Sequence record: MN850647.1
Strand: one strand, 5' to 3'
DNA from: Escherichia phage tootiki
Length of the DNA stretch: 64,000 nt
The position numbers and the translations under genes were made by a program. The first letter of the stretch is position 1. Every line of letters begins with the position of its first letter. Under the pieces are notes generated by a model. It saw only the letters and a list, made by a program, of their open reading frames with translations, did not search any database and was not told the DNA's origin. Below, in pieces: positions 53,450 through 61,885 of this stretch.

Positions 53450-55086
53450 AATATCTTAAGAGCCTCCTTAATTGGGGGCTTTTTAATTTTTATAAAATTT
53501 TATCGGTTGTCCCAACCTCTGGGTCACCATCATATGTGAATAAAATATCTACCCTTCTTAACAACCTTCTTAATCTTACTCTCTATATAGTTATATAGTA
53601 CTATATAGTATCTTAGTAACTATCTAGTGGTCTTAATAGCCCTCTGTATAGCCCTTCTAAATAGCCTTCTAAACACTCTTCTAACAAGCCCTCTTAACCA
53701 CCTATACAATCACCTTAACCATCCCTCTACACCCTCTTAGAAGCTCCTATACACCTCTTAATCTCTAGGTTAGCTATGGCACTCTCTATAGGTGTTCACT
53801 AGGTAATACTAAGCCTCTATATAGACTGTTTTAACAAACTTAACAGGAATATCTTTACAGACCTTACCTCACAAGGTCTAACACGGTACTAACAAGGTAT
53901 CTTGTAAGCCTGTTTCTACCTGTATTTTTAAAAGACTGTATAGGTAATTATTCAGAATTTTAAAATTTTTATAAAATAGGACTATCAAGTCATTTTTTAG
54001 GGTCTTTGAAGGAACTGAAAAATATCTGTCTAGGATGTATATCTGCTTGGTAGCCCTTAACAGCTCCCTTACAAGTACTTTGCAAAATTTTAAAATATCC
54101 TTAACAATCTCTTAACAGTTCTCACATCTTCTTAACAACTCTTCAAAGGTCTTAACAGATTCTTAACAGAACTAACAAGGCTGTAACAGTTTCTTAACAG
54201 TTGATACATAATCTTTACAGAGGCTTAACAGATGACTAACAAGAGCTAACAAGTTAATTTTAAAGAGTTATTTTGTTAAGATTATTAACAAGTTTCTAAC
54301 AAGTCTTTAATCTTTTTAACAAGCTATTAACATGGTCACTATCTCTTTCTTATCGTTCCCTTTCCTTTCTTAGTGATTCTTTAAACATACCTCTTAAAAG
54401 CTCTCTATAGCTCTTTATAAGCTCTTTTAAGTCTCTTCCTAGTAGTTACACCCCAACTGTACAGATAGCTCTCTATAGGGCTTTACAGGAGCTTTTAAGG
54501 CTATGTCAAAGACTCTTACAAGGCTTTTACGTGGTCTTAACAGAGATTTAACAAGGGGCTAACAAGTTGCTAACAAGTGTCTTAAAAGCATAACTATGTA
54601 GGGATTGTTAAGAAATTGTTAAGAAAATGTTAAGGGGGCTAGTATTTACGTAACTTTTAAGCTACTTCAAAATAACTTTTAAGCTACTTCAAAATAACTT
54701 TATAGCCCCCTTCTTAGATATTCACAAGATAACTAATGAGATGATAAAGCTTACACCCTTATAAGATTCTTTTAAGGCTCTGGGAAGCTTTATAAAGGGC
54801 TTTTAATGGTGAGGTAATGCAATCCCTTAAGTTAGGTTAATAAGGTCGTTATAGGGCTTTATAGAGCGTTTAAATGGTTGCCCTTCCCTTTCGGGTTATG
54901 GGCTTATATTTAAGTTGATTTGATAAGGGGCTATAGAGTAAGCTATAGAGTTATTGTTTTTTAAGGTCTGATAAGATTCTGGAAAGGAAAGGGAAAGGGT
55001 TGTATAAGGGATTTGATAAGACGTAAAAAAGCCCCATATAAAGGGGCTGTAAAGGTATCTGGGGCTATTTAGCCCCGTTGCGGCGT
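53450..55086. repeat. 1.6-kb ORF-free region dense in short direct repeats (iteron-like)
   Basis: No ORF of 60 aa or more in any frame; many copies of CTTAACAG / CTAACAAG / TTAACAAG, CTATATAG and CTCTATAG motifs; tandem 22-bp repeat at about 54655-54700. Confidence 0.6.
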
Positions 55087-55335
55087 TTAGTTAGTGCCTT
55101 CTTTGTCGTAGTACAAGGAGACAATTTTTTCACCCCAGTAGTGGTATGTATAACCCTCTTTGAGAACTTCCTCTTTTGTTTCTTTCCAGAATTCATCAGA
55201 GGGGTTGTAGTCACTGATGGTCTGGCTGATAAGGCCTTTCACCATTTCAAAGGCGTTATCAGTACCTACAAGGTCAAATTTAACGTCCAGAGAGTAGAAG
55301 CCAAATTCGTTAACAGTTGCGCGGATAGTAGCCAT
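55087..55335 (-). CDS. hypothetical small protein
   Basis: ATG immediately follows the conserved leader module. Confidence 0.55.
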   Translation of the reverse strand: MATIRATVNEFGFYSLDVKFDLVGTDNAFEMVKGLISQTISDYNPSDEFWKETKEEVLKEGYTYHYWGEKIVSLYYDKEGTN

Positions 55336-55441
55336 TTTAGAATCTCCAGTTTAGGAAGTTGATTAAGGGTTTTGTTTAGCGGGGAAGGTCATTCCCTCCC
55401 CGTTGATTGACAATTTACAGACTTTTGATTGTTTCGTCAAT
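55336..55441 (-). promoter_or_regulatory. conserved promoter-leader module, class B
   Basis: Minus-sense TTGACG-N17-TAAATT, leader hairpin CGGGGAGGGAATGACCTTCCCC, then CTAAACTGGAGAttctaaaATG. Confidence 0.5.
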
Positions 55442-55944
55442 ATCTTTTTCAATATCTTTTAAAGTTTTTTCTAAGTTCTTGATATTGAAAGATAAACCTT
55501 CTCCCAGTGTCTTAGAGTAACCGCTAGGACGTGAGTCATATAGTTCAATTTCTTCTACTTCGAAGAGGCTAACCAACTCACCGCTTACACTGTAAGCCAT
55601 TGAAACAGTATTTACAGGGGCTTTATAAAACTTGTTTAAGGACTTGATAGAACGTTCATAAGCCATTTTATAGCTATTTAAAAGGTTTTTAACGTGGCTG
55701 TGAACGTTTTTACACTCATCTAAATAAAGACCTAAAAACATCGGGAGAAGTTCCGCGACAGCTTGCATAAAGTGAGAGACTACAACGGTTGCAACATTAC
55801 GACGATGAACGTAATAAGCCCCGTTTTCTGATTTGGTAATGGTTGCAAAGTGTACCCCATTACAACGAAATTCATAGGTATCTTTAACAGGCTTAGACAT
55901 TACATTATTTGAACGAATATAGTTGATAGCTTTGAACTTGTTCA
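55415..55944 (-). CDS. hypothetical protein
   Basis: Start set at ATG 55944 directly after the conserved leader (ORF track start 56038 lies inside the module). Confidence 0.5.
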
Positions 55945-56037
55945 TTTTAGAATCTCCTAGTTTAAGGACTTTACTTAGTAGGGAGGTTATTGCCTCCCCG
56001 TTGATGAGTAATTTACTTGTTTTGATATCTGATTGCA
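55945..56037 (-). promoter_or_regulatory. conserved promoter-leader module, class B
   Basis: TTGCAA-N17-TAAATT, GGGGAGGCAATAACCTCCC hairpin, AGGAGA RBS. Confidence 0.5.
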
Positions 56038-56167
56038 AGCAATTTTTTAAGTTTATCTATAAAGAATCTTTTAAGTTAATCCCTTTTAGATAAACCCCCT
56101 CGAACAAATCTACCAATGTCAAGGGGCGTTGTCAATACTTTTTTGAAAGTTTTTTGTAAGTTATTGA

Positions 56168-56509
56168 TTAACTGATGAATATTTTTTCAGGTTTTACATA
56201 GCTGATACGCTGACTTTTTAGCAGGTCATCCCAGATTAACGCGGCGATATGGGCATAACCGGATTCACGTAAAAGCTTCATTGTTTTACTTCTCGTTTCA
56301 AAACGGCTTGCGTAGTACTCACTATTTAAAACCGTTTTATTCCCTTCGTTATCTACATGGATAATCTGCATCACTTGAAAGGGGCTTGTGTCCTCGCCTT
56401 TGTTCCACTGTTCAAAGTATTTTAGGCACTGCATAGGTGACATCTTATCACTTACTTGAGTTGACCAAGATGAATTTTCTTTATCGGTAATTACGGTTAC
56501 ATAAGCCAT
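56168..56509 (-). CDS. hypothetical protein
   Basis: 113-aa ORF following the leader module. Confidence 0.55.
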   Translation of the reverse strand: MAYVTVITDKENSSWSTQVSDKMSPMQCLKYFEQWNKGEDTSPFQVMQIIHVDNEGNKTVLNSEYYASRFETRSKTMKLLRESGYAHIAALIWDDLLKSQRISYVKPEKIFIS

Positions 56510-56600
56510 TTTTGAATCTCCTAGTTTAAGGATTGTACTTAGTGGGGAAGGTCATTCCCTCCCCGTTGATTGACAATTTACAGATTTTTATCAGGCTTGT
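56510..56600 (-). promoter_or_regulatory. conserved promoter-leader module, class B
   Basis: TAGACA-N17-TAAATT, GGGGAGGGAATGACCTTCCCC hairpin, AGGAGA RBS. Confidence 0.5.
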
Positions 56601-56834
56601 CTAGTCTTTTTCAATGATAATTTCATACTGACCATCTACGCTGTCAAAATAGATACCGTCTTCATCTTCTGTCTTAAAGTAACATTGTATATCATCACTA
56701 GCGGGATAGTCTTGTCTTGCTATCTGACAGACCTGAACAGCATTTTCTTTACTTCCTGTAAACTCCTCAAGCCCTTTAAAATCACATGAATGACCATTAC
56801 AAATAGAAAGGATAAGATAAACGGTTGTAAGCAT
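56601..56834 (-). CDS. putative lipoprotein/secreted small protein
   Basis: N-terminal hydrophobic segment ending in Cys; preceded by hairpin AGCCCC/GGGGCT instead of the conserved module. Confidence 0.45.
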   Translation of the reverse strand: MLTTVYLILSICNGHSCDFKGLEEFTGSKENAVQVCQIARQDYPASDDIQCYFKTEDEDGIYFDSVDGQYEIIIEKD

Positions 56835-56900
56835 GATTTAAGCCTCTTAAAAGCCCCTGTGAGGGGCTAATCAGTGTTTATAAGGTGATTGCATAGGTTT

Positions 56901-57443
56901 TTAGAAAAAGCTCTTTAAATCTCTCTCTGTGATGTTTCCCGCTAGTGTATCCATGATGTCACAAAAAACCTGAATACTATCCGACTGTTGAATACTTTTA
57001 GCAAGAAGCTCCAGAGACTCATCAAGATAATTTAAATTTGGGTTATCCAATGAAGGAAGACAAAAAGGCGAAAACATCGCATTAAACTCGGTTACGTAAA
57101 CCTTTTTAATCCAATTTAAATCGAAGTATTCTGTAAAACTTGCTACGCCAGACATATTATCACAAGAATAATCATCATTCAGGTCATCCTCTGGGATATC
57201 AAGTTCTAAGATAACAATATTTTGGGTTTTCATCTGGAAAGCGGCCGTAATAGTGGCATTACCTAACGCTTGCTGGATGCCTTCGGCTGTTATCTCTTCC
57301 TCATCGTCGCCATAGATTTTATTTTCTGGATACACGTAAAAATTGCCGTCCATGTCCGAACAATTCCATGCACCTGATGGCTTGTCACCGTTATTAATCA
57401 GGTTGAGGAAATTTTCTTGAGTAGTACCGTGAAAGCATTTCAT
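56901..57443 (-). CDS. hypothetical acidic protein
   Basis: 180-aa ORF following a class A module. Confidence 0.55.
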   Translation of the reverse strand: MKCFHGTTQENFLNLINNGDKPSGAWNCSDMDGNFYVYPENKIYGDDEEEITAEGIQQALGNATITAAFQMKTQNIVILELDIPEDDLNDDYSCDNMSGVASFTEYFDLNWIKKVYVTEFNAMFSPFCLPSLDNPNLNYLDESLELLAKSIQQSDSIQVFCDIMDTLAGNITERDLKSFF

Positions 57444-57535
57444 TTTTGAATCTCCAGTTTAGGATTTAGTGGTAAAGCTCTTTATCTGGGGCTTACTTTA
57501 TCGAACTATAAGCCCCTTGTAAAGTACTTTATTTG
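57444..57535 (-). promoter_or_regulatory. conserved promoter-leader module, class A
   Basis: Minus-sense TTTACA-N17-TAAAGT overlapping hairpin GGGGCTTA...TAAGCCCC, then CCACTAAATCCTAAACTGGAGATTCAAAAATG. Confidence 0.5.
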
Positions 57536-57732
57536 TTATTTTTTACTACTTTTAAAACCGCACGATAGCCTAAGCAATAGGAATCACCGAAGAGCGACCG
57601 ACCCATGAAGGAGTCCTCTGTAATATCTTTCGCCGTGACGGTTTTTTCTACGCCGTGAAAGAGAACTACATCACCGACTTTAATATCTTTGATGTGTGTA
57701 GTTTCAATGGTTAAACCGTTAATAATAGCCAT
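57529..57732 (-). CDS. hypothetical small protein
   Basis: 67-aa ORF following a class B module. Confidence 0.5.
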   Translation of the reverse strand: MAIINGLTIETTHIKDIKVGDVVLFHGVEKTVTAKDITEDSFMGRSLFGDSYCLGYRAVLKVVKNNK

Positions 57733-57842
57733 TTTTGAATCTCCAGTTTAGGACTTTATTTAGTGGGGAAGGTCATTCCCGCCCCGTTGATGTGTAATTT
57801 AATCTATCTGAAAACCAATGTCAACAATTTTTTTTTTTTTTT
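57733..57842 (-). promoter_or_regulatory. conserved promoter-leader module, class B, preceded by A15 tract
   Basis: Minus-sense A15 tract (57828-57842), TTGACA-N17-TAAATT, GGGGCGGGAATGACCTTCCCC hairpin. Confidence 0.5.
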
Positions 57843-58245
57843 AGAGTTCTGCATAAATTGCATCACAGATACCACGAAAATCATGATTTGTCAAATTACG
57901 TTGTAACCAAGTGGCGAAAAAGTCAGCGATTGCAAAGTTAGCGTCATACTCGACAGATAGCCACACTTTAACAGCAAACCGAAACATTTTCAAATCAAGC
58001 TCTTTATTCATTACCTTAGATTTGCCTAACATGTCGGACATTTCATATTGTGCACCGTCTAGCGTGATACCTGCTGCAACGTCAGCCAATGAGTTTTTTA
58101 CGTTTTCAACGTCTAAGATAACGCTTTGAATCTTCCCAATAATGTTGTGCAATGTTTCGTCCGGTGCTGATGACGTAATAACATTAATCCGGTTAACGGT
58201 CAAACGTGCTTTTAAGATTGATAACTCGCGATTATTAATAGCCAT
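57841..58245 (-). CDS. hypothetical protein
   Basis: Start set at ATG 58245 (MAINN...) by leader alignment; ORF track start 58260 lies inside the module. Confidence 0.5.
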   Translation of the reverse strand: MAINNRELSILKARLTVNRINVITSSAPDETLHNIIGKIQSVILDVENVKNSLADVAAGITLDGAQYEMSDMLGKSKVMNKELDLKMFRFAVKVWLSVEYDANFAIADFFATWLQRNLTNHDFRGICDAIYAEL

Positions 58246-58331
58246 TTTTAAGTTCTCCAATTTAGGATTTAGTGGTAAAGCTCTTTATCTGGGGCTTACT
58301 TTATCGAACTATAAGCCCCTTGTAAAGTACT
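58246..58331 (-). promoter_or_regulatory. conserved promoter-leader module, class A
   Basis: Near-identical to the 57444, 59920 and 60299 modules. Confidence 0.5.
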
Positions 58332-58604
58332 TTATACTAAATGCAGCTTTTTACCTTTTACTATGATGTAACTCGATGCGCTATTGCTTTGCACATCCTG
58401 ATAAATTCTGCGCAAACGGCCTTCGTAGTATACTTTCCAACTGGTTGGAATCTTTTTCCCGTATCCTGTAGCAGTTTTTTGTAGTCCTGCAAGTTGCCAA
58501 TCTAAGATATGTTGTTCGGCTTGTAAATCCTCGAAGTGCATTACACCGTTCACATAGTGACGAAGGGTTATGTTTAAGGTGCGACCGTTGTTAGTAGTAT
58601 ACAT
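58332..58604 (-). CDS. hypothetical small protein
   Basis: 90-aa ORF. Confidence 0.5.
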   Translation of the reverse strand: MYTTNNGRTLNITLRHYVNGVMHFEDLQAEQHILDWQLAGLQKTATGYGKKIPTSWKVYYEGRLRRIYQDVQSNSASSYIIVKGKKLHLV

Positions 58605-58690
58605 TTTGAATCTCCTAGTTTAAGGACTTTGTTTAGTGGGGAGGTCATTACCTCCCGTTGATTAGTAATTTACTTGTTTTAAAAACCAAA
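58605..58690 (-). promoter_or_regulatory. conserved promoter-leader module, class B
   Basis: TTGATT-N17-TAAATT, GGGAGGTAATGACCTCCCC hairpin. Confidence 0.5.
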
Positions 58691-58691
58691 A

Positions 58692-59024
58692 TCAAGAGAA
58701 ATTTTTTCGTTTGCTCAATTCTTGAACAATTACAGCGTAGTAGTCTTTTAAGTCACTGACATTTAAAGCATTTATCAGAGAATTATAATCATCGACTAAC
58801 TGAAAATCATCTTTGAAAATGTCGCTGATTTGATAAGTTTTTGATTGAAATCTGAAGCTCATTTCTAGCCGCTTTATTTGCTCATCACTGAGGCGCCCTA
58901 GAAAGCTTTCTACAAGGTTATTGCTAACCTGCTGTGTGATTGCCTTATTTGCTAGATTATAGGCTTTATATGCCTTATATAGCGCGAAAATGGCAATGAT
59001 TGCAGTGATACCAGTCATTAACAT
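58692..59024 (-). CDS. small membrane protein
   Basis: N-terminal transmembrane segment ITAIIAIFALY; not preceded by the conserved module. Confidence 0.5.
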   Translation of the reverse strand: MLMTGITAIIAIFALYKAYKAYNLANKAITQQVSNNLVESFLGRLSDEQIKRLEMSFRFQSKTYQISDIFKDDFQLVDDYNSLINALNVSDLKDYYAVIVQELSKRKNFS

Positions 59025-59314
59025 GGTGTTTCCTCTTTACGTGATACTTTGCCATTTACAGTTATCTCATAAGAATCTAGTAAGTCACTTTTAGACTTTA
59101 CTGGACTTTTAAAAGTATCATCATAAATATTTACTTGCAATACAGGTTTTTTATACTCCCTGCAACTATTCCATAAGCAAATCACTACGCGACGGCCTTT
59201 TATTTTGCCGTGCAACCATTCCATAACATCATGATTATTTCTTGATGTCTCGATAAAATCAATTTTGTTGAGTAATTTGCTCAGATTTTCACGCACTTGA
59301 TTTGATAATTTCAT
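59018..59314 (-). CDS. hypothetical small protein
   Basis: 98-aa ORF following a class A variant module. Confidence 0.5.
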   Translation of the reverse strand: MKLSNQVRENLSKLLNKIDFIETSRNNHDVMEWLHGKIKGRRVVICLWNSCREYKKPVLQVNIYDDTFKSPVKSKSDLLDSYEITVNGKVSRKEETPC

Positions 59315-59400
59315 TTTAGAATCTCCTAGTTTAAGGGCTTTATTTGATAAATCTCTTTATCTGGGGCTATCTTACCAGCTTGATAACCCCGTGTAAAGAA
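59315..59400 (-). promoter_or_regulatory. conserved promoter-leader module, class A variant
   Basis: Same leader 3' end; divergent hairpin GGGGCTAT... Confidence 0.45.
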
Positions 59401-59406
59401 ATCTAT

Positions 59407-59919
59407 TTAGTTCTTAAAGATATTCATCACTGAGTCTTTCAACGATTCCAAACGTTCTAATACTTCAGTTTCTGCGTCTGAATTGTTCACCTCTTCTTTT
59501 AGTCTATCTTCTAAATCCTCACCGTCACTATAGCACCAATCGAAAGCGTAACCAATATAAAAGCTGTCTAAAACCGTTTTACCGTTTGCATCTACAACTT
59601 TCGCGGCAATGTTATACTCTGAAGCTTCTAAATCTCTTTCTAGTTCTTCCTGTAAGCTTGCGTAAGCCTCTTTTGATGGATTTTCCCGGCCTTGTTTTGC
59701 ATAGTCACTAGAAAGCTGCTTAAGGCTGTAATGTAAAGGGATTGCATATTTAAAATCATTACGCTGACAGTTAGGATTTTTAATCGTCACACCACCTTGA
59801 TGGTCATCTGTAAACTTCCAATTATCAAGATTATGGCTTGCTTCAAAGCAATTTACCGCTTCATAGATAATGGTGAATTTTTCTTTTACAACTTCAAAAG
59901 TAGCGTCTACAGTTTTCAT
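59407..59919 (-). CDS. hypothetical protein
   Basis: 170-aa ORF. Confidence 0.55.
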   Translation of the reverse strand: MKTVDATFEVVKEKFTIIYEAVNCFEASHNLDNWKFTDDHQGGVTIKNPNCQRNDFKYAIPLHYSLKQLSSDYAKQGRENPSKEAYASLQEELERDLEASEYNIAAKVVDANGKTVLDSFYIGYAFDWCYSDGEDLEDRLKEEVNNSDAETEVLERLESLKDSVMNIFKN

Positions 59920-60000
59920 TTTTGAATCTCCAATTTAGGATTTAGTGGTAAAGCTCTTTATCTGGGGCTTAAGATATCAACTTTTAAACCCCATGTAAAG
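59920..60000 (-). promoter_or_regulatory. conserved promoter-leader module, class A
   Basis: Shares the leader and first hairpin arm (GGGGCTTA) with the other class A copies; second arm and -35 region divergent. Confidence 0.5.
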
Positions 60001-60004
60001 TACT

Positions 60005-60298
60005 TTATTTGTTAATTTTCAGCTTTGCATAACTTCTCATTGTACGAATGGTGGATGTTAATGCTACGCGTCTAATGTATGCCTTTTTCGTGTATACATT
60101 TGTCTTCCCGATAGTGTTTACACATGTAAAAAGGTTTATCGGTGAATTTTTTAACTTCAACTGTTTATCAGCCTTCACGCCCCACCTTACAGCAGATTGT
60201 TTTCCGTTGTCAACCACTTTCCCGCATAACTTTTTAGCCATAACGCGAGCGTCATCACGAGTTTTTGCAGCAATTACAACGTTTTTGATAATAGCCAT
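60005..60298 (-). CDS. hypothetical protein
   Basis: Start set at ATG 60298 (MAIIKN...) by leader alignment. Confidence 0.5.
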   Translation of the reverse strand: MAIIKNVVIAAKTRDDARVMAKKLCGKVVDNGKQSAVRWGVKADKQLKLKNSPINLFTCVNTIGKTNVYTKKAYIRRVALTSTIRTMRSYAKLKINK

Positions 60299-60384
60299 TT
60301 TTAAGTTCTCCAATTTAGGATTTAGTGGTAAAGCTCTTTATCTGGGGCTTACTTTATCGAACTATAAGCCCCTTGTAAAGTACT
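60299..60384 (-). promoter_or_regulatory. conserved promoter-leader module, class A
   Basis: Near-identical to the 58246 module. Confidence 0.5.
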
Positions 60385-60591
60385 TTATTTATCGTAGTAG
60401 TAAATTGCTGTCTGTCTTGTAAACTTCTTAGTATTTCTTGTCAGATAGCAATTAGAATTAATAGCCGTTTCTACATAGTTGCAATAGTCAGCTTCTGATA
60501 TTCTAGACCATACGCCACAGATTTGCATGTAAAAACGTTTTACCTTTGTGTGAATGTTAGTTGTAACCATCAATTCGCGACTGTACAGCAT
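60385..60591 (-). CDS. hypothetical small protein
   Basis: 68-aa ORF following a leader variant. Confidence 0.45.
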   Translation of the reverse strand: MLYSRELMVTTNIHTKVKRFYMQICGVWSRISEADYCNYVETAINSNCYLTRNTKKFTRQTAIYYYDK

Positions 60592-60839
60592 TTTTAGATT
60601 CTCCAGTTTAGGAAGTGGGCTTGATTGCCCGTCTGATGCAGATATTAGATAACTATACTCAAAGAGTCAATAGGAATTTTAAAAATATTTTTTGCAAAAA
60701 TTGTAATGAAACGGGTGCGCGCGACTACCACAAAACAGAACTACAATCAAGAATTATTTTTCAATCCGCTACAAATTTTTCTGTTGACTTTTATTTCCAG
60801 ATGTGGTAGCCTTGTGAGAAATGGCGACATCCCCACCTG

Positions 60840-61040
60840 TACCCACCTACCTGCACAATTCTAAAATGATTTTTCTTGCCCGACCTGAGCGGGGTCTGCA
60901 CGTTTTGAAAATGAAAAAGCTCTTTGGAGATTACCTGCACAGTTTAAAAATGAATTTTCTCTTTGGAGTTCAAAATTCTCTCTACAGATTTCTCTACAGA
61001 ACTCTACCTGCACAAATCTGAAATGAAAAAGCCCTCCTTA
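60840..61040. promoter_or_regulatory. cluster of direct repeats upstream of the leftward small-gene array (candidate operator/promoter region)
   Basis: Three copies of TACCTGCACAnnTnTnAAATGA at 60848-60869, 60932-60953 and 61005-61026; repeated CTCTTTGGAG and AAATGAAAAAG. Confidence 0.5.
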
Positions 61041-61099
61041 CCTGAAAAATTTACCAGATAAGAAAGGCTTAGGCTATTGTGAATATCCTACAGAGTTTC

Positions 61100-61885
61100 T
61101 TAGTTCTTTGCGTCTAAGAAGGTAACTTCTGGTGAAGAGAAAACTGTCTCGATATCCTCATCAGTTCTTGCATAGATATAAGTATCTGCATCACTGCCAA
61201 ATGTTACTGCAATCCTGTGATTGCTCTTCGACAGGTGGGTAACTAGAGCGTTACTCAGAGACATCTTTTCAACCGGAGGGTTACTTTGATGTATCTTACC
61301 TTTTCTTCGTCTGAAGAGGGTAACTGCGTTATCTGTGAACACTGCTACACCTGCAAAGTATTCTGGTTCACAGTAGTTCTTCCAACCTGAGCGTAACTTG
61401 TGGTACATCTCTCCTTCGTAGACATAAAGATACACATCTACACTCTTCATCACCTGATTAATGATAACTGTGACGGCTTGAGGGTCTAGCCCACCGATAC
61501 CTGCACCAATCATAGGTAAACCAACCTTCTTCAACTGGTTGACTTCACAGTATCTGTTAAGCTGCTTCAAAGATGACTCTAAAGCACTGTATCGGGCATC
61601 TTTACCAGTCTTAAGCTGAGTGTAAAGGTTAGCTATACGGCCTTGTTCTAAACGTGCTACAGAGAAATTACCCAGTAAATTTTCACAGGGTTTGTGACCT
61701 ATACCACCTGCATAGAGGTAAACTTCTGTATCGGTCTCATATGCTTTTGGGTAAAGTTTAGAAATCTTGTCAGCGATACCTACACCCATTAAATTCATAC
61801 AGTTGCAACCGTGACCAATAATATCAAACTTACCTTTATCAAATGCTGAGAAGATATCCCCATTGATGATTTTTACAATACCCAT
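61100..61885 (-). CDS. macro-domain (ADP-ribose binding/processing) protein with C-terminal extension
   Basis: N-terminal IINGDIFSAFDKGKFDIIGHGCNCMNLMGVGIADKI matches the macro-domain pattern (GDIT ... DAIVNAAN ... GGGVAGAI) by eye. Confidence 0.55.
   Translation of the reverse strand: MGIVKIINGDIFSAFDKGKFDIIGHGCNCMNLMGVGIADKISKLYPKAYETDTEVYLYAGGIGHKPCENLLGNFSVARLEQGRIANLYTQLKTGKDARYSALESSLKQLNRYCEVNQLKKVGLPMIGAGIGGLDPQAVTVIINQVMKSVDVYLYVYEGEMYHKLRSGWKNYCEPEYFAGVAVFTDNAVTLFRRRKGKIHQSNPPVEKMSLSNALVTHLSKSNHRIAVTFGSDADTYIYARTDEDIETVFSSPEVTFLDAKN

Follow-up and report, generated by a model that had tools for sequence, protein, structure and literature searches.

Among known systems, the PeSL (promoter-early stem-loop) cassettes of T4-like phages come closest to the locus described here. 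[quoted passage not shown] In hyperplastic regions, PeSL cassettes precede orphan ORFs, with indels occurring at the modules, and the T4/PST promoter consensus reads TTTACW-N17-TAYWAT (PMC2839356, PMC4122927). The repeated modules of Felix O1-like phages match PeSL in promoter, stem-loop, ribosome site, placement and the occurrence of indels at the modules, and a second phage group appears to repeat a design whose descriptions have so far been limited to T4-like phages. The literature search yielded no paper linking PeSL to Felix O1-like phages, where the repeats are listed just as direct repeats. We consider it likely that the locus is a hyperplastic early-gene array of self-contained expression cassettes, representing the Felix O1-group counterpart of the PeSL cassettes.

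The window, i.e. the whole analyzed stretch of 64,000 nucleotides from Escherichia phage tootiki (MN850647.1), belongs to a Felixounavirus (Ounavirinae, Felix O1 group), and the region in question corresponds to ORF14-23 of Felix O1. It is a 5.6-kb array of 13 small ORFs (g1 to g13), all on the minus strand, as are the features given below, and is bracketed by two intrinsic terminators. The upstream one (61029..61070), located 3' of a Macro-domain ("phosphatase") gene, consists of a 17-bp stem followed by a T-run and is given as t13 of Felix O1, while the downstream one (55030..55048) is given as t23 (PMC3185647); the terminator scan found true terminators at these two ends of the array only. 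Modules of 85-110 nt precede 10 of the 13 ORFs and fall into class A (five copies) and class B (five copies), to which a class-B-like variant at g1 is added. HMM profiles built from the five plus five copies recovered exactly these ten in the 64-kb window (E = 7e-20 to 5e-28), at the minus-strand positions and in the two classes proposed by a previous sequence-only reading, and gave at most a partial match to the common ribosome-site tail in the rest of the window. The remaining 58 kb of the window contained no module copy, and none was present in the upstream flanks of 27 related loci (268 kb in total) or in the DNA that follows the last array gene. Similarly, the leader core CCTAAAYTGGAGA occurs seven times exactly, always on the minus strand between 55343 and 60612, and is matched elsewhere in the window only three times, with two mismatches each. 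The repeats are real and restricted to the array. Their conservation far exceeds that of the coding regions, as had been claimed before, since the 13 ORFs belong to 13 different BLASTP families, none of which is related to another. The previous count of about ten genes was too low, and the assignment of a module to each gene holds for ten of them, while g5 has none, g10 is preceded by a terminator-like hairpin and a ribosome site of its own, and g1 carries the variant, whose -35 hexamer (60670) falls just beyond the array end of 60640 assumed at that time.

The anatomy of the modules is directly apparent: each contains the stop codon of the ORF before it, a predicted sigma-70 promoter, a G-run/C-run RNA stem-loop and a strong ribosome site with GGAG at a distance of 8-9 nt from the ATG; the ORF after it opens with ATG-GCT or ATG-AAA/AAC. 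Class A is represented by the modules of g2 (60299..60387; -35 TTTACA 60379-60374, -10 TAAAGT 60356-60351, inner hairpin 60372-60344, extended hairpin of ~20 bp 60387-60329, ribosome site 60312-60308), g7 (58246..58334, with a 100-nt exact tract in common with the g2 module) and g9 (57444..57531, from the HMM profile and promoter scan), together with those of g3 (59920..60007; TTTACA 59999-59994, -10 TATCTT 59976-59971, hairpin GGGGTTTAA/TTAAGCCCC 59992-59964) and g4 (59315..59405; TTTACA 59397-59392, -10 TAAGAT 59374-59369, hairpin GGGGTTATC/GATAGCCCC 59390-59363), the latter showing compensatory changes in the outer stem. The combination of TAAAGT with a GGGGCTTA/TAAGCCCC hairpin, which had been ascribed to the whole class, is therefore found in three of the five copies, but not in those of g3 and g4. 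Class B comprises the modules of g6 (58605..58698; -35 TTGATT 58695-58690, -10 TAAATT 58672-58667, hairpin GGGAGGTaatgACCTCCC 58656-58638), g8 (57733..57840; A15 tract, -35 TTGACA 57824-57819, -10 TAAATT 57801-57796, hairpin 57785-57765), g11 (56510..56608; -35 TAGACA 56603-56598 overlapping the g10 stop codon, -10 TAAATT 56580-56575, hairpin 56564-56544), g12 (55946..56044; -35 TTGCAA 56038-56033, -10 TAAATT 56015-56010, hairpin 55999-55980) and g13 (55336..55442; -35 TTGACG 55440-55435 within the 3' end of g12, -10 TAAATT 55417-55412 including the g12 stop codon, hairpin 55401-55381). Besides the TTGACA and TTGACG covered by the previously proposed TTGAC(A/G)-like -35 element, class B thus also includes TAGACA, TTGCAA and TTGATT. 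The equivalent of the g8 module in phage AYO145A is annotated as a promoter. The variant module of g1 (60592..60680) consists of an AT-rich upstream stretch, a -35 element TTGACT (60670-60665), a -10 element TAATAT (60647-60642) at N17 spacing, a hairpin GGGCaatcaaGCCC (60630-60617; GGGC-aatcaa-GCCC) and a ribosome site GGAG (60604-60601) within the same leader as in the other modules; hairpins of this type also occur in distant relatives, e.g. between F1 and F2 of array L020.

A comparison of 233 module copies, drawn from 29 arrays, directly showed the conservation pattern: the bases contacted by sigma-70 are fixed and the neighboring bases drift. The consensus is TTTACA-N17-TAnnnT for class A and TTGnnn/TAGACA-N17-TAAATT for class B. 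All 117 distinct class A copies contain TTTACA, and 109 of them show TAnnnT exactly 17 nt further on, the middle triplet being free to vary (TAAAGT, TATCTT, TAAGAT, TAGTAT, TATGAT and others). In an alignment of 64 class A sequences from four genera, the 11-nt loop has no invariant bases other than T and A of the -10 element, and the -35 element keeps its C and A in all sequences although both are unpaired. The class B hexamers are likewise conserved at 17-nt spacing, with a spacer conservation of only 30-60%. Promoter scanning at a cut-off of 9 of 12 consensus positions, below which two class B promoters score, yielded 28 sites compared to 18 ± 4 in shuffled sequence, representing a modest overall enrichment, and the -10 hexamers of the modules match just 3-4 of the 6 positions of TATAAT. 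Previous RT-PCR data on Felix O1 show maximal expression of ORF16, 20, 21 and 22 at 5 min after infection, whereas ORF14, 17, 19 and 23 peak at 25 min (PMC3185647). Since ORF17, 19 and 23 are located behind modules, the term "early" does not apply uniformly. Among the publications searched, none maps transcription starts or RNA ends of a Felix O1-like phage or describes reporter assays on one. The earlier interpretation of the modules as promoter-plus-leader units is supported by the invariant sigma-70 contacts, the fixed 17-nt spacing between variable neighbors and the Felix O1 expression data.

The class A hairpin is far larger than previously noted, forming a three-segment interrupted helix of ~20 bp (-24 to -28 kcal/mol; folding z of -4.2 to -4.6) which encloses the whole promoter, with the -35 element in the 5' arm and the -10 element in the loop. 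Neither this enclosure nor the published PeSL design had been recognized in the sequence-only reading. Pairing is retained in 95.7% of the alignment cells compared to 91.9% after shuffling (none of 500 shuffles reached the observed value), although several stem pairs are invariant and hence uninformative on structure, and related sequences may exceed shuffle controls without any structural constraint; sliding of the partner strand reduces pairing to 32-56%. Covariation is directly visible as changes on both sides of five pairs, with stem variants such as CTTA/TAAG, TTATC/GATAG and TTTATA/TATAAG, or GGTG.../...CACC in Erwinia phage Panisse. G·U pairs are frequent (43, 111 and 11 cells at three positions) and A·C is nearly absent, which identifies the sense strand as the folding strand. 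Through compensatory exchanges and G·U pairs the hairpins retain their pairing, which points to sense-strand RNA. The class B hairpin region shows a mean folding z of -4.4 (105 copies), and the hairpin starts 10 nt past the -10 hexamer in 100 of the 105 copies, which makes it a 5'-terminal stem-loop of the predicted transcript. A U-tract was not found after the hairpin of any module, so classical intrinsic termination is not expected, and a terminator role of these hairpins would be borrowed by analogy from the reporter assays on PeSL.

The footprints of recombination are directly observed in the comparison of related phages. Among the 19 complete arrays, 18 different gene orders occur; each array contains 9-19 genes and 7-15 modules, and only 6 of 26 ORF families are common to all of them. 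One ORF plus one module forms the unit that is present or absent among relatives; the positions of F17 and F20 vary from phage to phage, L024 carries F9 in duplicate, and F6, F4, F13, F17 and F25 each follow a class A module in some phages and a class B module in others. Modules at the junctions are chimeric, with the 5' end matching the upstream and the 3' end the downstream module, and the crossover points vary between the vicinity of the -35 element, the hairpin, the leader and, between classes, the ribosome site. Alignment breakpoints are located inside modules in 109 of 123 cases, and 29 of 36 breakpoint clusters lie in modules, which cover 21% of the array (p = 6e-14), although intergenic breakpoints are partly expected from selection alone because the modules make up nearly all intergenic DNA. 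Exact tracts shared between modules extend over 100 nt (g2/g7), 75-77 nt (g9) and 41-45 nt, and those across classes A and B over 24-27 nt within the ribosome-site leader. A case of transfer between genera is given by the F23 cassette, which is 97-100% identical between L028 and L020/L022 with flanks of 30-80% identity, the identical block ending at two CCTAAACTGGAG leaders. Taken together, the recombinational shuffling suggested before is borne out by the gene orders, the chimeric junctions, the breakpoints and this intergenus cassette bounded in leaders, which strongly support that related phages gained, lost and swapped genes via recombination at the modules.

In the proposed mechanism, host sigma-70 RNA polymerase would start transcription at the predicted promoter of each module. 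The predicted start of class A is the A of AGATAAAG, and transcripts initiated there would lack the 5' arm, so the hairpin should form only in RNA reading through from upstream. It may attenuate or terminate this read-through RNA or mark it for RNase III-type cleavage, and may also cap the preceding message at its 3' end, with the embedded promoter restarting transcription. The class B hairpin, at ~2-4 nt from the predicted 5' end, may guard the mRNA from 5'-end-dependent decay. Homologous recombination between the exact tracts of 24-100 nt would delete, insert, duplicate, move and horizontally exchange units of ORF plus module, and shuffling by such units would leave the expression signals intact.

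The modules might also not be promoters at all, if a single polycistronic early transcript started from the promoter upstream of g1 (60670-60642) and the repeats acted as intercistronic RNase III or RNase E processing sites, like the hairpins between the T7 early genes, and additionally as stabilizers of 3' and 5' ends and translation-initiation regions, the -35/-10 matches being incidental. RNase III acts on helices of ~20 bp, and the interrupted class A helix is of this size; the RNA-level selection on the hairpins by G·U pairs and compensatory changes, the confinement of real terminators to the array ends, the lack of U-tracts after the module hairpins and the weak consensus match of the -10 hexamers would also fit. 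However, this model predicts neither an invariant T-A in a free loop exactly 17 nt from an invariant TTTACA, nor the invariant unpaired C-A of the -35 element, nor conserved class B hexamers around an unconserved 17-nt spacer with a fixed distance of 10 nt from -10 element to hairpin, and it would require read-through past up to 12 stable hairpins for the expression of inserted cassettes. We regard it as unlikely. The two models are compatible with each other, as the cassette model itself already includes a processing of read-through RNA.

The inverted repeats may alternatively be conserved as DNA, either as operators bound by a dimeric regulator of phage or host origin that silences early promoters or as cruciforms that tune promoter activity with supercoiling, a view consistent with the class A palindrome, which spans -35 to +15 relative to the predicted promoter, where operators are typically located, and with the near invariance of AGATAAAGAG and CTTTACA. 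It is rendered very improbable by the stems changing while pairing is kept (CTTA/TAAG, TTATC/GATAG, GGTG/CACC), which is a signature of structure rather than of a protein site, and by the location of the class B hairpin downstream of the predicted start. Moreover, the frequent G·T pairs of the sense strand correspond to A·C mismatches on the other strand, an asymmetry indicating that a symmetrical duplex site or cruciform is not what is conserved. Strand-asymmetric pairing would be expected from sites of a dedicated mobility system acting site-specifically on folded single strands, such as integron attC-like hairpins or miniature mobile elements, and the single-ORF cassettes with one imperfect hairpin with internal loops each, their duplication and their appearance at new positions are also reminiscent of such systems. 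We give this possibility hardly any weight, since crossover points differ among events, the exact homologies of 24-100 nt suffice for general recombination, no recombinase is tied to the array (its ORFs lack Pfam matches), and neither target-site duplications nor terminal inverted repeats other than the hairpin itself are present.

Among the genes of the array, the core consists of g4 (98 aa, F5) and g5 (110 aa, F1; 59024-58692), which together span 58692..59314, overlap by 7 nt without a separating module and are found in all 19 complete arrays, and further includes g6 (58332..58604; 90 aa, F2, ORF19 of Felix O1), g7 (57841..58245; 134 aa, F3, ORF20), g11 (56168..56509; 113 aa, F4, ORF21) and the last gene of the array, g13 (55087..55335; 82 aa, F11, ORF23). 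Felix O1 counterparts also exist for g1 (60385..60591; 68 aa, F14, ORF15; PHROG 5293, unknown function), g12 (55415..55945; 176 aa, F10, ORF22) and g3 (59407..59919; 170 aa, F12, ORF16), the cassette of the latter being missing from L002, L009, L017, L018, L021 and L028. The g2 cassette (60005..60298; 97 aa, F9) is missing from Felix O1, L005 and L006, and the variable g8 cassette (57529..57732; 67 aa, F13) from Felix O1, L014 and L015. The pair of g9 (180 aa, F6) and g10 (77 aa, F7; 56834-56601), spanning 56601..57443, acts as a single cassette and is missing from Felix O1; the terminator-like hairpin between them (AGCCCCTcacAGGGGCT plus TTTT, 56868-56852) carries a terminator annotation in the wV8 and Barry records. 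A Pfam search of the array ORFs gave no matches, and all their PHROG matches are to families of unknown function. An ADP-ribosyltransferase fold is predicted for g9, which is the sole hint toward the host-takeover or anti-defence role previously suggested as a possibility for these ORFs.

An additional orphan promoter (56096..56135, minus strand) with the sequence TTGACA-N17-TAGATT and a TG extension is located inside a CCCCT...AGGGG hairpin and matches 10 of 12 consensus positions. It is not followed by a ribosome site or ORF in the window and carries a promoter annotation in AYO145A; in L022, L024 and L026, the stretch from F4 to the following module contains a 46-aa ORF (F24). The orphan promoter probably remains from a cassette that has been lost.

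The repeats noticed in the sequence-only reading are real. HMMs made from the five class A and five class B copies, the two types of module of ~85-110 nt in which a predicted promoter, a hairpin, and a ribosome site are combined, recovered exactly ten modules with E values of 7e-20 to 5e-28, and their matches elsewhere in the 64-kb window were only partial and corresponded to the common ribosome-site tail. The leader core CCTAAAYTGGAGA occurs seven times in exact form, always within the array region and on the same strand, and exact tracts between modules extend up to 100 nt (g2/g7) or 75-77 nt (with g9), while those between class A and class B modules extend up to 24-27 nt and are located in the leader. 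About ten small genes with such modules had been proposed, of which the ten modules stand, but the genes of the array number 13 (g1-g13), with g5 and g10 lacking a module; the module of g1 is a class-B-like variant, and each of the 13 proteins belongs to a BLASTP family of its own. The hexamers proposed for the two classes apply to some of the copies only: TAAAGT is the -10 element of three class A copies, but the others carry TATCTT or TAAGAT, each with a matching different stem, and a TTGAC(A/G)-like -35 element describes the class B variants TTGACA and TTGACG, but not TAGACA, TTGCAA, and TTGATT. A twelfth promoter-like element on the minus strand (56135-56096), consisting of TTGACA-N17-TAGATT inside a CCCCT...AGGGG hairpin, lies in the long spacer between g11 and g12 with no ORF behind it and is probably the scar of a lost cassette; three of the related loci compared (L022, L024, and L026) contain a 46-aa ORF between the g11 homologue and the next module. 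The sole internal terminator-like signal of the array is a hairpin between g9 and g10 (56852-56868; AGCCCCTcacAGGGGCT followed by TTTT), behind which g10 follows without a promoter of its own.

The region is equivalent to ORF14-23 of Felix O1, bounded by the terminators t13 and t23 listed in the Felix O1 genome paper (PMC3185647), with every gene on the minus strand; the gene directly upstream of the array (61100-61885), annotated as 'phosphatase', encodes a Macro-domain protein. A megablast search with positions 55000-61100 of the window retrieved 257 phage records, essentially all from Felix O1-like myoviruses and with identities of 90-93% for the best matches, while the coverage of the region varied from 100% to <10% even inside the genus and amounted to only 52% for Felix O1 itself. 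For a wider comparison, 29 IMG/VR loci were fetched with the flanking Macro-domain protein as anchor, in addition to Felix O1 and Erwinia phage Panisse (genus Kolesnikvirus), and the ORFs of the compared arrays were clustered into families F1 to F34. The 29 arrays consisting of those from the window, Felix O1, and 27 loci contain 233 full modules, of which 127 belong to class A and 106 to class B. BLAST searches with a single module found 288 phage records with 1,442 places for class A and 243 records for class B, and all module-bearing records belong to Felixounavirus, Mooglevirus, Suspvirus, or Kolesnikvirus-type phages with 1-9 copies per genome, except for one 'Staphylococcus' and one 'Campylobacter' record. 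Because of this distribution, and because no module was found in 268 kb of upstream flank of the 27 loci or downstream of the last array gene, the modules should be regarded as a subfamily-wide feature of one array. Note that GU169904 ('Staphylococcus phage SA1', 147 kb) is the only record covering 100% of the region; the presence of Felix O1-like sequence inside this record is probably due to contamination or a chimeric assembly.

The proposed recombinational shuffling of promoter-leader cassettes is well borne out by gene orders, chimeric junctions, and breakpoints within the modules. The 19 complete arrays, each made up of 9-19 genes and 7-15 modules, show 18 different gene orders and share only the families F1, F2, F3, F4, F5, and F11. 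The unit of presence or absence is either one ORF with one module or the pair g9-g10 with one module, and cassettes also change places: F17 precedes F13 in L003 but follows it in L008, F20 heads the array in L007, L013, and L028 and is found mid-array in L024, and F9 is duplicated in L024. In six comparisons of arrays with and without a given cassette, the single remaining module has an upstream-like 5' end and a downstream-like 3' end, with the crossover placed differently from case to case, either near the -35 element or within the hairpin, the leader, or the ribosome-site leader common to classes B and A. Ends of BLAST alignments fall inside modules in 109 of 123 internal cases, or 29 of 36 clusters, although modules make up 21% of the array (p = 6e-14), an excess which is partly expected because viable breakpoints must be intergenic. 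Either module class may be found ahead of F6, F4, F13, F17, and F25, depending on the phage, and the sub-variants of class A show a mosaic distribution over the positions. A further case is F23, a cassette coding for 48 aa, which is 97-100% identical at the nucleotide level between L028 (4740-4945) and L020 (5210-5410) or L022 amid flanking genes of 30-80% identity; the Macro-domain proteins of L020 and L022 are 65-69% identical to that of the window, compared to 91% for that of the Felixounavirus-like L028. The block of identity starts at the upstream CCTAAACTGGAG leader and fades just past the next CCTAAACTGGAG leader, and the module upstream of F23 is of class B in one phage and of class A in the other. 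The high identity of F23 amid divergent flanks indicates that this single cassette was recently transferred between genera. As read from the sequences, the patterns of the array are footprints of homologous exchange via the repeated modules.

As judged from their pattern of conservation, the modules should indeed be promoters. All 117 distinct class A copies contain TTTACA, which is followed by TAnnnT with a free middle triplet at a distance of exactly 17 nt in 109 copies and of 18 nt in most others. In an alignment of 64 sequences from four genera, the T and A of the -10 element are the sole invariant bases of the variable 11-nt loop, and the C and A of the -35 element are invariant despite being unpaired; these are the bases required by sigma-70, and a model based purely on RNA structure does not predict their invariance. 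Class B modules retain their -35 (TTGnnn or TAGACA) and -10 (TAAATT) elements at a spacing of 17 nt around a poorly conserved spacer, with TAAAGT as the -10 element in distant genera. A possible pairing between the -10 and -35 elements of class A, as suggested by TAAAGT being the reverse complement of ACTTTA, was rejected because the other variants (TATCTT, TAAGAT, and TAGTAT) lack such complementarity. Early expression of the array is supported only in part by the RT-PCR time course of Felix O1, in which ORF16, 20, 21, and 22 peak at 5 min and ORF14, 17, 19, and 23 at 25 min (PMC3185647). Two of the sites are annotated as promoters in the AYO145A record, by consensus, and a literature search for transcriptome, start-site, or RNA-seq data on Felix O1-like phages found none.

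The class A modules fold into a three-segment hairpin of ~20 bp (-24 to -28 kcal/mol, z-scores of -4.2 to -4.6), made up of stems of 6, 5, and 9 bp with conserved pairing and, between them, internal loops of 3x3 and 1x1. The outer stem consists of UAAAGU/GCUUUA, the middle stem of CUUUA/UAAAG, and the inner stem of GGGGCUUAU/AUAAGCCCC; the TAA stop codon of the upstream ORF is part of AAATAAAGTA, which forms the outer 5' arm, the 5' arm also holds the -35 hexamer, and the loop holds the -10 hexamer. Since transcripts of the module itself are predicted to start at the A of AGATAAAG, immediately 3' of the inner stem, they cannot form this hairpin, which would be possible only in read-through RNA coming from upstream. 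Pairs are found in 95.7% of the cells, compared to 91.9% after shuffling (a figure as high as the observed one is reached in 0 of 500 shuffles) and 32-56% when the partner is slid. These counts understate the pairing at columns 23-25, because the alignment used (A1) places the inner stem of 15 TTATC/GATAG-type sequences off register by one column. Five pairs are changed on both sides, among them an outer G-C pair turned into U-A in 11 sequences and an inner G-C pair turned into U-A in the Erwinia phage, and the 55 distinct inner segments, when folded copy by copy, form stems such as CTTA/TAAG, TTATC/GATAG, or TTTATA/TATAAG. The same symmetry might in principle serve as a duplex operator or a cruciform in DNA, but G·U pairs are frequent and A·C pairs nearly absent, and the sense strand is therefore under selection, which argues for a structure in RNA instead.

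The hairpin of class B is shorter (6-8 bp) and occurs in at least 31 sequence variants, with quite different stems in distant genera (e.g., GGGGCaagcaaGCCCC). RNAalifold on a plain MAFFT alignment suffered from indels in this hairpin, which shift its arms out of register, and folds of the individual copies were used instead. The hairpin starts exactly 10 nt past the -10 hexamer in 100 of 105 copies and should therefore lie ~2-4 nt from the predicted 5' end of the transcript. No U-tract follows any of the module hairpins on the 3' side, where AGAUAAAG is found in class A and ACUAAAU in class B, and among the minus-strand signals between 54800 and 61200 only t13 and t23 qualify as intrinsic terminators. 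A search of both strands of the same interval against Rfam gave no match at E <= 1.

Every module ends with GGAG, followed after 8-9 nt by ATG. Within the last 20 nt of every module, a CCU(U) 'anti-ribosome-site' is located 4-6 nt upstream of the ribosome site (e.g., 57448-57463), with which it can pair in a mini-hairpin of 3-4 bp; the combinations CCT...TGGAG and CCTT...TAGGAG occur 138 and 89 times, respectively, one copy is discordant, and the counterparts in the Erwinia phage are CCTT-ata-AAGG, CCTC-aaa-GAGG, and CCT-taaac-AGG. This mini-hairpin could tune translation or be a target of nucleases. As a further observation, 11 of the 13 ORFs begin with ATG-GCT, ATG-AAA, or ATG-AAC, with g5, g6, and g1 (second codon CTG) listed as exceptions, and the identity between the g2 and g7 modules extends 10 nt into the ORF (ATGGCTATTA). 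Either selection for efficient initiation or crossovers reaching into the coding start would be compatible with this pattern.

A composite model of PeSL-type cassettes, in which promoter, hairpin, and recombination are combined, appears quite probable, with the highest confidence placed on recombination, an intermediate one on the promoter, and the lowest on the role of the hairpin. Promoter-early stem-loop cassettes (PeSLs) were described in the T4-like phages phi1/RB49, T4/PST, and KVP40/nt-1 (Arbiol et al., 2010, PMC2839356; Comeau et al., 2014, PMC4122927). Both PeSLs and array modules are intergenic composite repeats of ~100 bp which open at the upstream stop codon with an AT-rich stretch, contain an early promoter of the sigma-70 type with a 17-nt spacer (a predicted one in the array), carry a polyG/polyC stem-loop either between or over the -35 and -10 elements or just past the latter, and end with a ribosome site and ATG at the 3' side. 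The stems in the array are of the GGGG...CCCC form, that of class A covering the spacer, the -10 element, and the predicted start, and the -35 element TTTACW of the T4/PST PeSLs is the same as that of class A. Both kinds of repeats precede orphan ORFs in a hyperplastic region and bound the indels or replacements seen between close relatives, which leave one chimeric repeat in the case of the array. However, the lineages differ, the array phages being Ounavirinae with genomes of ~87 kb and the PeSL carriers T4-like phages, and the array modules have no sequence homology to the published PeSLs. Moreover, all array copies are concentrated in one array of 5-7 kb, compared to ~50 PeSL copies over several hyperplastic regions, they form only two sharply defined classes conserved across four genera, and the outer arms of the ~20-bp, three-segment class A helix take in the -35 element and the first transcribed bases, unlike in PeSLs. 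Experiments have demonstrated promoter strength, terminator activity, and mini-circles for PeSLs (PMC2839356; PMC4122927), and we infer them for the array modules. The latter are thus regarded as the same kind of element in another lineage rather than as members by descent, because the window belongs to a Felixounavirus of the Ounavirinae and PeSLs are defined only in T4-like phages. The combination of promoter, stem-loop, and ribosome site would then not be peculiar to T4-like phages, and the fact that a second myovirus lineage, unrelated to the first, also uses it suggests convergence on a general way to hold and exchange accessory early genes. A link of PeSLs to Felix O1-like phages was looked for in the literature, and none was found. 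The Felix O1 paper lists repeats of 57 bp and 39 bp as uninterpreted direct repeats (PMC3185647), and in the RefSeq record of wV8 the repeats appear as DR_1 to DR_9, with some of the hairpins given as terminators but placed on the wrong strand. Neither promoters nor repeats are mentioned in the wV8 genome paper, and the rV5 paper contains nothing relevant.

Parts of the design are also known from other systems. In T7, stable, interrupted RNase III processing hairpins of ~20 bp separate the small early genes transcribed by host polymerase, and an RNase III site generally requires about two turns (~20 bp) of mostly continuous dsRNA, often with internal loops. The class A hairpins are likewise interrupted, ~20 bp long, located between small early genes, and devoid of a U-tract, and both could form protective 3' hairpins on the upstream messages. 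They differ in that the T7 early genes depend on three common promoters at the left genome end, with no promoter inside the hairpins, whereas the predicted class A promoter lies inside the hairpin. At 7-8 bp, class B hairpins fall short of the size of an RNase III substrate, but a hairpin within a few nt of the 5' end has the geometry for blocking 5'-end-dependent attack by RNase E. Emory, Bouvet, and Belasco reportedly found in 1992 that a 5'-terminal stem-loop in the ompA 5' UTR stabilises the mRNA, and class B would share this 5'-terminal geometry, as judged from the predicted start, without any sequence relation. Integron attC arrays resemble the array in consisting of tandem single-ORF cassettes with one imperfect hairpin-forming repeat each and in differing in cassette content between close relatives. 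However, attC sites are served by a dedicated tyrosine recombinase with a fixed crossover point in the folded site, whereas the array cassettes carry their own predicted promoters and their crossovers vary inside tracts of homology. An attC-type site was rejected on account of these varying crossovers and of a Pfam scan of the array ORFs without a match, and the resemblance should be taken as an analogy only. Two classes of short intergenic repeats (29 and 58 bp) are promoters in halovirus HF2 as well; these are archaeal promoters, and the abstract refers neither to a stem-loop nor to cassette shuffling (PMC8707807).

The ORFs of the array gave no Pfam match, PHROG matches only to families of unknown function, and no hit in PDB sequence searches. 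For the g9 product (180 aa; family F6), whose homologues all come from Ounavirinae, an alignment of 21 sequences was built; Y36, Y38, and E80 are the same throughout, and H5 is nearly so. In an AlphaFold model of moderate quality (pLDDT 69, pTM 0.70), which is predicted to adopt an ADP-ribosyltransferase fold, these residues are found on successive strands and could represent an H-Y-E motif (H5, Y36/Y38, E80). Such a protein would fit a role in host takeover, which should be taken as a lead rather than a finding.

It is conceivable, if rather doubtful, that the array is an integrase-free cassette exchange platform of all Ounavirinae, built on a 60-nt sequence with three roles, and a store of host-takeover and counter-defence genes. 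The sequence would act as a host-polymerase promoter in DNA, as a stop or processing hairpin of ~20 bp in read-through RNA, and by its homology as a landing pad for single-gene cassettes moving, possibly as mini-circles, between phage genera that infect Escherichia, Salmonella, Shigella, Citrobacter, and Erwinia. In that case, these phages would use the array to store and trade their genes for host takeover and counter-defence. Typing, biocontrol, and therapy make wide use of Felix O1-like phages, and the array, as the site of accessory-gene variation between isolates (9-19 genes per array), is an obvious place to search for host-range, takeover, and anti-defence functions. The modules may also be employed as natural landing pads in phage engineering, and they would supply two compact expression units with natural insulation for use in E. 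coli and Salmonella, the start sites and RNA ends of which are precisely predicted.

Between t13 and the first promoter, a repeat of ~35-39 nt with the form (CTCCAAAGAG)nnTTTCATTTTnAAAnnGTGCAGGTA occurs four times on the minus strand of the window (60850-61045); it belongs to a family which is also present in distant relatives (e.g., L023) and could represent a regulator-binding, packaging, or replication site. There are hints that the array may adjoin the physical genome end and thus be the first DNA injected, as in the early regions of T7 and T5: the metagenome contigs L010 and L011 end ~45 nt after the fourth and last GTGCAGGTA repeat, at a point equivalent to ~60800-60845 of the window, where L011 runs directly into a Nextera adapter, and direct terminal repeats were reported for Felixounaviruses (581 bp in Pr103Blw; PMC8303462). 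However, most GenBank records are continuous across this point, and the only record ending there, Andreotti (MN850610), contains a fold-back assembly artefact at a module; for the same reason, its interpretation as a natural mini-array was rejected as unreliable. Several contigs (L003, L006, L007, L013, and L016) and records (D1-2, Tribble, phiWec172, and KEP3) start or end inside modules. With a length of ~90 nt, the repeats evidently disrupt assembly from short reads and lead to arbitrary 'genome starts', which explains the frequency of such breaks and starts in this region.
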